Shown: positions 21,461 to 23,801, numbered from the stretch's first letter. The stretch is 32,000 bases of DNA from Vulcanisaeta distributa DSM 14429 (GCF_000148385.1 NC_014537.1:1650001-1682000), one strand, 5' to 3'. Notes: generated from the letters alone by a model not told the origin. Numbers and translations are program-made.

Positions 21461-21745
21461 TTAACCACCGCCGGCTGGTGGTAGGAATACTACCTCATCA
21501 CCATTAGACAACTTAGTACTTAATCCATTTAGAAAGTCTATTGACCTACCATTAACCAGGATCACGTATTGATCCTTAAGTCTGCCATTATCATCTAGGA
21601 TAACCTTCGAGAAATTGGGGCTCACTGAGGTATCAATAACCTGTATTAAATCCTTAATTGTCGCATTGTCAGGTATGTTAAGCTCAGTCTTAAGTACCTT
21701 AGTTATGTCATATAATGATGCCAAGAACTTAACCTGAACCTTCAT
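21461..21745 (-). CDS. MoaD/ThiS-family ubiquitin-like small protein with a C-terminal Gly-Gly(-Gly)
   Basis: MKVQVKFLASL...ILVNGRSIDFLNGLSTKLSNGDEVVFLPPAGGG is the archaeal MoaD-type beta-grasp pattern ending in GGG. The gene has its own TATA box at 21768..21777. Confidence 0.75.
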   Translation of the reverse strand: MKVQVKFLASLYDITKVLKTELNIPDNATIKDLIQVIDTSVSPNFSKVILDDNGRLKDQYVILVNGRSIDFLNGLSTKLSNGDEVVFLPPAGGG

Positions 21746-21767
21746 CAATCACATAGCAGTAAAAATA

Positions 21768-21777
21768 GTTTAAAAAG
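21768..21777 (-). promoter_or_regulatory. TATA box for the GG-ended MoaD-like gene
   Basis: On the minus strand this reads CTTTTTAAAC, 24-33 nt upstream of the ATG at 21745. Confidence 0.45.
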
Positions 21778-21797
21778 CTTAATACGAAAAACATTAG

Positions 21798-22082
21798 TTA
21801 TGCAACACCGCAATGCGGTAAAAATGTTACTTCATCGCCATCAGATAACTTAGTATCAACGCCATTTAAGAAATCTGGGGATCTTCCATTAATTAATACT
21901 AAGAACTTATCTTTAATTTTATTATTACAGTCAAGGATTACCTTAGAGAAGCCTGGGTATATAGCATTATCTATTTTCCTTATTAAGTCAAGCAGTGTCG
22001 CACCATCAGGCAACTCAATCTCGGTCCTCAACGTCTTAGTCATTTCATATAGTAAAGTCAAAAATTTGACGTATATCTTCAT
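21798..22082 (-). CDS. MoaD/ThiS-family ubiquitin-like paralog lacking the C-terminal diglycine (ends ..LPHCGVA)
   Basis: MKIYVKFLTLL...LINGRSPDFLNGVDTKLSDGDEVTFLPHCGVA. By hand alignment it is roughly 55-60% identical to the neighbouring paralog. I place the start at the ATG at 22082, supported by a TATA box at 22102..22112. The track extension to 22178 is probably not real. Confidence 0.7.
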   Translation of the reverse strand: MKIYVKFLTLLYEMTKTLRTEIELPDGATLLDLIRKIDNAIYPGFSKVILDCNNKIKDKFLVLINGRSPDFLNGVDTKLSDGDEVTFLPHCGVA

Positions 22083-22101
22083 TGCTTTGCTGTTAATGTC
22101 A

Positions 22102-22112
22102 ATATATAAAAA
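22102..22112 (-). promoter_or_regulatory. TATA box for the CGVA-ended MoaD-like gene
   Basis: On the minus strand this reads TTTTTATATAT, 20-30 nt upstream of the ATG at 22082. Confidence 0.5.
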
Positions 22113-22159: not shown

Positions 22160-22621
22160 CTACTGTTGCGGTGAGCACTTACCTAGTGCCTTCAGAAGTG
22201 CCATTGCAATGCCAAGACCTCTCTGTACATCCTTATCCCCTAATGCTCTCCAAAGTCCCATTAATCCACTCACGGGTTTAGCGTTGGCTAAATCCACGTT
22301 CTTTCCTAGACAGCCACCTAAGTCTTGGACGAGGCCTTTCAACTTAAGGACATCTTGAGTATCCAGCTTATTCATCGCTTGTAAACTACCATCAACGAGT
22401 ATTGATAATAATCTAAATATCGCGGGATCCTGGAATAAGTACTGTATGACCTCATCAAATCTATTAACTATTAGCATTAACGCATCAATTACACCACTAC
22501 GCTTGAGCTCAATTAATTGATCAAGTAATCCCCTAATCTCATCAATATTCTGAACAAGTATGTTCAACGCCTCAGCAAGCTTCTCATCGGGGCTCTTTTC
22601 AGCCTGAGTTTGCTGCGCCAT
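22160..22621 (-). CDS. DUF1641-domain protein
   Basis: The protein is helical, with ..LVQNIDEIRGLLDQLIELKRSGVIDALMLIV... It sits immediately downstream of a pyridine-nucleotide-disulfide oxidoreductase, which is the usual DUF1641 context. The ATG at 22621 is preceded by GAGGTGATC. Confidence 0.6.
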   Translation of the reverse strand: MAQQTQAEKSPDEKLAEALNILVQNIDEIRGLLDQLIELKRSGVIDALMLIVNRFDEVIQYLFQDPAIFRLLSILVDGSLQAMNKLDTQDVLKLKGLVQDLGGCLGKNVDLANAKPVSGLMGLWRALGDKDVQRGLGIAMALLKALGKCSPQQ

Positions 22622-22624
22622 GGT

Positions 22625-22633
22625 GATCACCTC
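22625..22633 (-). promoter_or_regulatory. Shine-Dalgarno-like site coupling the SQR-like gene to the DUF1641 gene
   Basis: The minus-strand mRNA reads ...ACG ATG TGA GGTGATCACC ATG GCG.... The GAGGTGATC sequence overlaps the upstream TGA stop and ends 3 nt before the DUF1641 ATG. Confidence 0.5.
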
Positions 22634-23801
22634 ACATCGTTGTTGCTAGCCAGGTTTTATAAAATAGATCCTTAATCAATCTACCAAGCGGTGACGTTAA
22701 TATACTATAGCAGCTACCTACCCACGCAGCCTTATTACCAGTTAAATCAAGCTTAACATCGCAGTTAAACATCATACCAAGATCGCCATAATCCATGGCA
22801 CAGGTCATCGCATTTATCTGTGCAGGCTCTATGGGCTCACCAAGTAGTTCACCCGCTATTACCGTGGCACTCGCTAATGCCGTGAAATGCACAGGCACTC
22901 CAGCCGTTGGTAAGCCTATATATGGCATCGAGTGCTCACCAGGTAAATAAACATCATCGTACTTTAAACTCCTACCAGTATAAACATCTATAGCCGTCCA
23001 TTTACCGGTTGGTGTATCGGTAATTAATGGCGTTCCCTCAAAGGGCTTCGGAAGCCTTGCTGGCGGTACCACAATGAGCAGGTCATACTTATACTTCTCA
23101 CCGTTTGCCAGTATAACAGTCTTCTCTTTATCATCAACCTTATCAGGCTTTATGCTACCAATGTACTTAATACCCTTCTTTGCATAGACTTCCTCAGTAA
23201 TCTTAACGGCCTCAGGTCCTAAGGGCTGTATCGGCTTTTCGAAGGGATGAATAAGCGTTATATCAACCCTATCCCTAATGCCCCTCTTCCTAAATACCGT
23301 GTCAAGCTGAGCCGCGAATTCAAAGGGATACACACCGCATCTATATATGGGTTCAGGCGTGAATATGATCACCTTACCACCACTGAAGGACCTCAATGCA
23401 TCCCTTAGTTTAAGTGCTCCATCTAGCGTGTAATTGTGATAACCGACGCCCAGGTTGTAAGATTGGAAGTCAAAATCAACGCCTAGGCTCGCCAAAAGGT
23501 AGTCGTAGTTAAACTTGCCTTGATCAGTCTCCACAACCCTATTATCAGGGTCTATCTTAGTGACTTTAGCCTTAACAAACTTGACACCTCTCCTCTCTAG
23601 CATTGACAGCGGTAACTGTGCCTTGCTTGGTTCTATATCGCCAAGCGCGATATTGACGAGTAACGGTGGCAATAGATAATAATCCGTATCGCTGACTATC
23701 GTTATTTCAGCATCAACCCTACCCCTTATTCTTTCAGCAATTCTCTTAGCAGCAACGACGCCACCAACACCACCGCCTAGGATGAGTATTTTCTTCGGCA
23801 C
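22632..23801 (-). CDS. FAD-dependent pyridine nucleotide-disulfide oxidoreductase, sulfide:quinone oxidoreductase-like
   Basis: The N-terminal KKILILGGGVGGVVAAKRIAE is an FAD Rossmann motif. Candidate redox cysteines sit in ..IYRCGVYPFE.. and ..MTCAMDYGD... The C-terminus is amphipathic. The start codon is GTG. Confidence 0.75.
   Translation of the reverse strand: MPKKILILGGGVGGVVAAKRIAERIRGRVDAEITIVSDTDYYLLPPLLVNIALGDIEPSKAQLPLSMLERRGVKFVKAKVTKIDPDNRVVETDQGKFNYDYLLASLGVDFDFQSYNLGVGYHNYTLDGALKLRDALRSFSGGKVIIFTPEPIYRCGVYPFEFAAQLDTVFRKRGIRDRVDITLIHPFEKPIQPLGPEAVKITEEVYAKKGIKYIGSIKPDKVDDKEKTVILANGEKYKYDLLIVVPPARLPKPFEGTPLITDTPTGKWTAIDVYTGRSLKYDDVYLPGEHSMPYIGLPTAGVPVHFTALASATVIAGELLGEPIEPAQINAMTCAMDYGDLGMMFNCDVKLDLTGNKAAWVGSCYSILTSPLGRLIKDLFYKTWLATTM

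Follow-up and report, generated by a model that had tools for sequence, protein, structure and literature searches.

A tandem MoaD/SAMP-type paralog in Vulcanisaeta carries a conserved cysteine-containing tail in place of Gly-Gly

Introduction

The exposed C-terminal Gly-Gly of the sulfur-carrier/SAMP/Urm1 class defines the chemistry of ubiquitin-like modifiers and of their sulfur-carrier ancestors. Here we describe a tandem pair of such ubiquitin-like (Ubl) genes in the hot-spring archaeon Vulcanisaeta distributa, located in a window of 32,000 nucleotides (nt), the whole stretch of DNA analysed, which corresponds to positions 1,650,001-1,682,000 of the complete 2,374,137-bp genome. The downstream gene of the pair encodes a protein with the expected end (the GGG copy), whereas its upstream neighbor ends in His-Cys-Gly-Val-Ala (the CGVA copy).

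Several described systems come close to the CGVA copy, each in a different respect. With the archaeal MoaD/SAMP family it shares size, the order of secondary-structure elements, the NG...L.G..T.L.DGDEV motif, the match to the family hidden Markov models and the SAMP1/HVO_2177 fold, but it carries H-C-G-V-A in place of G-G. Urm1 links the Ubl tail to cysteine persulfidation chemistry. The Pfam Urm1 model is matched by both copies, and the structural model of the CGVA copy resembles Urm1 of Sulfolobus/Saccharolobus (4wwm) as well as 6yuc and 2ax5; in contrast, the two copies reach only 26-27 bits with the NCBIfam Urm1_like model against its cut-off of 70, and Urm1 needs a Gly-Gly thiocarboxylate. 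QbsE (...GG-CF) is a precursor sulfur carrier trimmed by the JAMM protease QbsD. Precursors of this type resemble the CGVA copy in having extra residues, including a Cys, after the conserved Gly, but in the CGVA copy the invariant extension is not preceded by Gly-Gly, and neither its genome nor the other genomes of the family yielded a JAMM protease. Finally, a reactive Cys that is placed on a flexible arm, just a few residues short of the C-terminus, and has a second Cys nearby would recall the ...P-T-G-C-V arm of DsrC/TusE. The likeness would be one of analogy, as the fold and the family are unrelated and the CGVA protein is not a member; the genome's own DsrC-like open reading frame (ORF) is found at C1:1976004-1976363 and ends in ...PKPTGCV.

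Two published cases may be counted as precedents for a Ubl that relies on a tail thiol. In halobacteria, the beta-grasp group arCOG00539 bears a Cys-Cys motif at its C-terminus (Makarova and Koonin 2010, PMC2948915). Like the CGVA copy it is an archaeal Ubl lineage with the Gly-Gly end replaced by a conserved Cys-containing end, but it belongs to another phylum and has its two cysteines at the very end; the comparison is made by description. The activity of BfUbb from Bacteroides fragilis depends on a C-terminal disulfide (PMC11467351). It likewise combines a ubiquitin fold lacking Gly-Gly with dependence on a C-terminal cysteine; however, it is descended from eukaryotic ubiquitin, is not of the MoaD/SAMP type and is secreted as an antibacterial toxin, and its Foldseek match to the CGVA model is marginal (8hm2, TM-score 0.43).

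Results

Two adjacent MoaD/SAMP-type genes with different ends

A preliminary description of the window had proposed two adjacent same-strand beta-grasp paralogs of about 94 amino acids (aa), and both genes indeed lie on the minus strand and encode 94 aa each (Table 1). BLASTP aligned the two proteins without gaps over 92 positions, 55 of them identical (60%, where an alignment by hand had given 55-60%), with an E-value of 9e-42; the likeness is therefore not due to chance. Within residues 63-89, 21 of the 27 residues are the same in both. Translation reproduced the two ends as originally read, FLPPAGGG downstream and FLPHCGVA upstream, and the end of the GGG copy (PPAGGG), previously judged to be activatable in principle, is canonical in having the C-terminal Gly-Gly.

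Both proteins pass the cut-offs of the relevant family models. With Pfam ThiS (PF02597, cut-off 22.5 bits) the GGG copy scored 53.4 bits (3.9e-14) and the CGVA copy 38.4 bits (1.9e-9); with Pfam Urm1 (PF09138) the E-values were 5.3e-6 and 1.1e-4, respectively; and with NCBIfam moaD_arch (TIGR01687, cut-off 49.5) the scores were 71.6 and 51.1 bits, the match of the CGVA copy ending at position 85 of 88. SAMP1, the next best NCBIfam model, stayed under its cut-off. The AlphaFold2 model of the CGVA copy (mean predicted local distance difference test, pLDDT, 91.9; predicted TM-score 0.85) shows strands and helices arranged in the order of a beta-grasp fold. Poor definition is limited to the last four residues (block mean pLDDT 49), and because of this low value we read the C-terminal arm as flexible. 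The best Foldseek matches of the model were SAMP1 (3po0, TM-score 0.81), HVO_2177 (2m19), Urm1, MoaD and CysO, with a probability of 1.00 for SAMP1, Urm1, MoaD and CysO; HVO_2177 was also the best sequence match in the PDB. Both genes thus encode archaeal MoaD/SAMP-type beta-grasp proteins. The genome holds five moaD_arch paralogs: the GGG copy, the CGVA copy, two that end in ...PPAEGG and ...AYIHGG, and one lacking Gly-Gly that ends in ...APKAFIS.

The cysteine-containing tail is conserved

The preliminary description had left it to an alignment of orthologs whether the CGVA tail is a one-off, and the alignment showed that it is not: the tail is conserved in all 12 intact CGVA-type sequences, and none of them has the exposed C-terminal Gly-Gly. 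Eleven end in H-C-G-V/I-A and one in Y-C-G-V-A, at constant length; Cys91, Gly92 and Ala94 are invariant and position 93 is either Val or Ile. The codons underneath vary synonymously (CAT/CAC, TGC/TGT, GGT/GGC, GCA/GCT) and the stop codon varies too. Such drift of codons under unchanged residues indicates that the tail is selected at the protein level. Selection on the whole gene was judged from the ratio of nonsynonymous to synonymous substitutions (dN/dS; medians of pairwise Nei-Gojobori estimates), which was 0.070 for the CGVA orthologs, at a dS of ~1.1, and 0.056 for the GG orthologs. The CGVA copy is under purifying selection as strong as that on its GG neighbor.

Several sites are fixed within each paralog and differ between the two, namely 9, 10, 13, 17, 42, 44, 52, 59-61, 90, 91 and 94. 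Four of them distinguish the paralogs (CGVA versus GG) as follows: Cys/Asp at position 52, His/Pro at 90, Cys/Ala at 91 and Ala/Gly at 94. At position 52, at least 90% of the nine equal-length Vulcanisaeta GG sequences have Asp, and Cys occurs in none of those listed. The strong selection, the invariant tail and a conserved promoter (described below) together argue against the CGVA copy being a decaying pseudogene. A frameshift or read-through to Gly-Gly was also considered and rejected: neither the other frames nor read-through of the stop codon gives Gly-Gly, and stop codons differ among orthologs.

A single origin within one genus

Orthologs were searched for in 62 genomes of the order, representing nine genera. 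The CGVA type was found in Vulcanisaeta only, and GG-ended orthologs of the GGG copy, 43-58% identical to it, were found in seven of the nine genera. In a maximum-likelihood tree the CGVA sequences formed one clade (support 98/96, stem 0.39) with branches longer than those of the Vulcanisaeta GG clade. Because they form one clade, the tree indicates that the CGVA copy arose once, before Vulcanisaeta radiated, by duplication from a GG-type ancestor. The tandem pair is intact in 9 of 13 Vulcanisaeta genomes (that of V. distributa included), in the order SQR-like gene, DUF1641 gene, CGVA gene, GGG gene and a convergent aRF1 gene. Another two of the 13 are fragmentary assemblies in which neither copy of the pair was detected, and these were left out of the assessment of presence and loss.

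Other tails lacking Gly-Gly belong to other lineages

The CGVA copy was next compared with its wider family by a search against 1.84 billion representative proteins, from which the 150 best relatives were taken. A Gly-Gly end is found in 106 of them, Gly-Gly followed by a short variable extension in 22, and no Gly-Gly in the remaining 22 (15%). The tails of this last group are mainly recurrent hydrophobic ones (PRALFV[VL], APKAFIS, PSLILS), which suggests a widespread non-conjugating MoaD-like class. HCGVA was seen among the 150 in the query's own cluster and in the cluster of its most divergent ortholog (G032 type) and in no other. The CGVA copy does not belong to the APKAFIS/PRALFV-type lineage, as it falls in a different clade of the tree and HCGVA occurs in none of those clusters; nor did a genome-wide scan find another real gene ending in C-G-[VI]-A. 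The APKAFIS paralog of V. distributa itself shares 30% identity with the CGVA copy and occupies a long branch of its own in the tree. It is encoded ~4 kb past the window end (L003 1477-1758 (-), that is C1:1685960-1686241) and adjoins a 271-aa ORF that by eye looks CoA-transferase-like.

The preliminary description had allowed that tails lacking Gly-Gly might prove common and already explained in this MoaD subfamily, for example by proteins associated with AOR. Such tails are common (22/150), but they belong to other lineages with hydrophobic tails, and the oddity of the CGVA copy therefore persists. Non-GG ends are not rare in the family, and HCG[VI]A was derived separately and recently, within one genus, from a parent with a GG end. 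An explanation through AOR-associated proteins was rejected: in one genus (g8) of the sister family, two MoaD-like genes lie on either side of an AOR gene (L028, L031, L060-L062), and both of them end in Gly-Gly (...IVSPFGG upstream, ...PPVGGG downstream). In one genome of that genus (G058) the downstream AOR-flanking gene is extended, to GGGCVSYRGD. In genus g5, a sister genus within the same family as Vulcanisaeta, the GG ortholog lies near MoaA.

One E1 and no detectable JAMM protease or MoaE

The statement that the window contains neither an E1 nor a JAMM protease gene was borne out. The genome has one ThiF/MoeB-type E1, which lies outside the window (C1:728424-729116, 252 aa, PF00899 247.9 bits) and has no rhodanese or other extra domain. 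For JAMM, neither PF14464 nor PF01398 gave a match in the V. distributa genome; a relaxed search returned, at best, a PF14464 match with E = 0.24 and internal stops, and a scan of the genome for the JAMM motif gave one hit and nothing convincing. Prok-JAB was likewise missing from every one of the other 30 genomes of the family, but 27 of the 29 genomes searched in the sister family have it, as do both genomes of a third family. Any Ubl deconjugation or trimming in the family of Vulcanisaeta, if it exists, must then, going by these genomes, use a non-JAMM enzyme. Four extended GG tails were seen in the order, three of which (GGGL, GGGCVSYRGD and AAGGMGPT) belong to the JAMM-bearing sister family. 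Among relatives, such extensions vary in both length and sequence (GGGL, GGGCVSYRGD, AAGGMGPT, GGAPSP and others).

MoaE (PF02391) had no match in the V. distributa genome, and at a threshold of E <= 1 the other Vulcanisaeta genomes gave only a chance-level one (E = 0.18, in G025). Weak PF02391 matches in two sister genera were rejected as MoaE, being an unrelated 193-aa protein beside a 117-aa ORF. A 173-aa ORF that adjoins the HGG-ended paralog had no Pfam match. In Vulcanisaeta, another protein may stand in for the large subunit of molybdopterin synthase, or the subunit may have diverged strongly. Related genera of the order were seen to have MoaA and AOR genes, and several MoaD-like genes are kept in Vulcanisaeta despite the undetected MoaE.

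Discussion

A possible thiol-based Ubl

The locus amounts to a natural experiment: a tandem duplicate stands beside its unchanged parent, has lost Gly-Gly, is under equally strong selection and has gained a new invariant tail with Cys. Of the three mechanisms put forward in the preliminary description (a precursor that is trimmed, a non-activatable decoy or regulator, and a different chemistry at the Cys), the last one fits best, because Cys91 is invariant, flanked by His and usually accompanied by a second new Cys, and the trimmed precursor has lost ground to the missing JAMM protease and to Val/Ile93-Ala94, which is constant in length and nearly invariant in sequence. We tentatively suggest, with a confidence somewhat short of an even chance, that the CGVA protein is a non-adenylatable, untrimmed Ubl working through the thiol of its tail. 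The gene originated as a duplicate of its GG-ended neighbor, the end ...P-A-G-G-G having been converted to ...H-C-G-V-A by point substitutions. The encoded protein therefore lacks the C-terminal Gly-Gly that the single E1 of the genome would need to adenylate, thiocarboxylate or conjugate it through an isopeptide bond. The protein would act untrimmed. Residues 63-89 would preserve the face with which the family binds its partners, and the reactive group would be the invariant Cys91, carried on the flexible arm, either for persulfide carriage or for a reversible disulfide. His90 may assist Cys91, and Cys52, predicted at the base of the arm, could be a resolving partner in most species. We infer three parts of this proposal, which are the lack of trimming, the thiol as the reactive group and the identity of the partner.

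A more specific form of the proposal, which we regard as possible though on balance rather improbable, is an E1-independent, redox-driven protein tag or persulfide shuttle, in which a ubiquitin fold would have exchanged its C-terminal acyl chemistry (adenylate, thiocarboxylate, isopeptide) for that of a thiol. Cys91 would here carry sulfane sulfur or form reversible mixed disulfides with target proteins, possibly fed by the neighboring SQR, in archaea that would be without glutathione. Should the thiol proposal be true, thiocarboxylate chemistry can give way to that of persulfides or disulfides on the beta-grasp carrier scaffold, and the pair would offer a tractable 94-residue system for the evolution of Ubl tails. 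The finding is a narrow one, confined to one genus and to evidence from sequences.

A number of observations weigh against a thiol-based function. The CGVA gene is absent from one Vulcanisaeta genome (G025), where an MFS transporter gene takes its place, and in another (G030) just a remnant with a stop codon is left. On a contig of the JGI metagenome 3300025360 the gene is split by a 531-aa ORF (L055 3131-4726 (+)), which, read by eye, appears to be a TnpB/OrfB-like insertion sequence (IS) element; its 5' piece of 72 aa and its 3' piece, ending in ...FLPHCGVA, are both still readable, and the disruption is therefore recent. These cases fall into a single subclade, the one in which an opposite-strand MFS gene has been inserted between the DUF1641 and Ubl genes (L016 1861-3021 (+), L014 103-1260 (-), L055 1783-2922 (-)) and in which the CGVA gene is lost, truncated or IS-split. 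In that subclade the gene is dispensable. Moreover, the most divergent ortholog (G032) has no Cys52, so that a two-cysteine mechanism is not universal. No conserved partner gene was found, and the SQR-DUF1641 pair persists where the CGVA gene has been lost. Lastly, one metagenome-assembled Vulcanisaeta genome (G026, L010 1157-1450 (-)) has a GG copy that ends in GGGL, the sole extended GG tail seen in the JAMM-less family. The added Leu stems from an error in the assembly or else hints at non-JAMM C-terminal trimming in the genus.

Alternative explanations

The same pair of proteins could be arranged differently, with the CGVA copy as a non-covalent regulator or decoy that uses the conserved beta-grasp face to bind the E1 or a downstream partner of the GG copy, is itself not activatable, and tunes or blocks sulfur transfer or SAMPylation. 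The tail would then be conserved in order to occupy the tail channel of the partner and the thiol would do no chemistry; in other respects this account overlaps with the thiol-based one. Ubls lacking Gly-Gly that act non-covalently do exist, as in Hub1/UBL5, and the 21/27 identity to the GG copy over residues 63-89 together with the presence of one E1 only in the genome would suit such a role. Tandem genes with separate promoters would allow independent dosing, and the loss tolerated in one subclade is what one expects of a modulator. However, a pure blocker has no obvious need for an invariant Cys and His with a co-acquired Cys52, and the dN/dS is as low as that of the essential-looking GG copy. 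We hold a decoy to be rather unlikely, while noting that, if it were true, the pair would provide a rare case in which a paralog regulates a Ubl pathway of prokaryotes. Decidedly unlikely, in our estimate, is a precursor from which a protease removes Val93-Ala94 and exposes ...His-Cys-Gly, followed by adenylation of the single terminal Gly by the E1, as in UFM1, Atg8 and Atg12. Some eukaryotic Ubls do function with a single terminal Gly after trimming; Gly92 is invariant and aligned with a Gly of the GG copy; and tails with Gly-Gly plus an extension are common among the relatives, with the one GGGL in the same genus. But the JAMM/JAB proteases that would trim it, present in nearly all genomes of the sister family, were not found in the V. 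distributa genome or the other 30 of its family, the propeptide would always be two residues long and keep its Ala94 unchanged across dS > 1 where true extensions vary, and trimming would leave Cys, not Gly, as the penultimate residue.

Two further accounts concern the source of the sulfur and the activation step. As a special case of the thiol-based proposal, the CGVA protein could be the dedicated sulfane-sulfur acceptor of an adjacent SQR-like/DUF1641 complex, with Cys91 taking the persulfide. SQR products need a thiol acceptor, and we know of no SQR thiol acceptor established in these archaea. The flavoprotein, with its Pyr_redox_2 and FCSD_central domains, resembles type III SQR, and the gene order around it is kept in the nine Vulcanisaeta genomes with an intact CGVA gene. 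Nevertheless, the SQR-DUF1641 pair is found in six of the nine genera, mostly where there is no CGVA gene; it stays intact where the CGVA gene is lost or IS-disrupted and an opposite-strand MFS gene lies in between; the CGVA gene has its own promoter; and in other genera the GG ortholog is found elsewhere, beside AOR or near MoaA. A dedicated acceptor is accordingly highly doubtful in our view. Direct use of the untrimmed protein by the E1, through adenylation of the Ala94 carboxylate and with conjugates or a thiocarboxylate of altered stability, strikes us as extremely improbable. Ubiquitin G76A can still be activated, though more slowly, and non-Gly termini are adenylated by some E1-like enzymes, MccB among them; yet a beta-branched Val or Ile is invariant at the penultimate position of the CGVA copy, and direct activation would leave the invariant Cys and His unexplained.

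Transcription signals and neighboring genes

Each gene of the pair had been credited with its own TATA box, and a TATA-like box was found ~25-27 nt before each ATG (Table 1). Its position is kept in 9/9 CGVA and 11/11 GGG orthologous loci, and the other spacer sequence diverges. This placement would fit separate leaderless transcripts for the two genes. A literature search for Vulcanisaeta transcriptomes yielded nothing usable.

Table 1. Coordinates, in window numbering, of the tandem pair, its sequence signals and the genes upstream
Feature	Position	Strand	Basis or remark
CGVA copy, MoaD/SAMP-type beta-grasp protein, 94 aa, end LPHCGVA	21798..22082 (stop included)	-	ORF and translation; ATG 22082, stop 21800-21798; upstream member of the tandem
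GGG copy, MoaD/SAMP-type protein, 94 aa, end FLPPAGGG	21461..21745 (stop included)	-	ORF and translation; ATG 21745, stop 21463-21461; downstream member of the tandem
Tail codons His90-Cys91-Gly92-Val93-Ala94 (CAT TGC GGT GTT GCA)	21801..21815	-	Conserved in orthologs
Cys52 codon (TGT), loop before strand beta3	21927..21929	-	Cys in 11/12 CGVA-type sequences
TATA-like box TTTTTATATA of the CGVA gene	22103..22112	-	Centre ~25 nt before ATG 22082
TATA-like box TTTTTAAA of the GGG gene	21769..21776	-	Centre ~27 nt before ATG 21745
T5 run shortly after the CGVA stop codon	21787..21791	-	Candidate archaeal terminator
DUF1641 protein, 156 aa, context, upstream on the same strand	22160..22630	-	Pfam PF07849, 1.9e-16
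SQR-like flavoprotein, 389 aa, context	22632..23801	-	Pyr_redox_2 and FCSD_central

The SQR-like flavoprotein gave a partial match to the type III SQR model NF049943 (139 bits, under the cut-off). DUF1641 orthologs (56-93% identity) occur in six of the nine genera and so mostly in genomes without a CGVA gene. The phyletic pattern, the synteny and the Ubl genes' own promoters led us to reject an operon of the SQR-like, DUF1641 and CGVA genes as a firm claim, and a functional link between the SQR-DUF1641 pair and the CGVA gene is at most weakly indicated by the gene order. In Huc, ForCE and Ndh-Ncp, the last of these reported in Bacillota only, DUF1641 proteins have been described as scaffolds that serve to attach the complexes to the membrane and to transport quinones (PMC13524794). 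The neighboring SQR-like and DUF1641 genes may encode an as yet undescribed archaeal complex of that kind.

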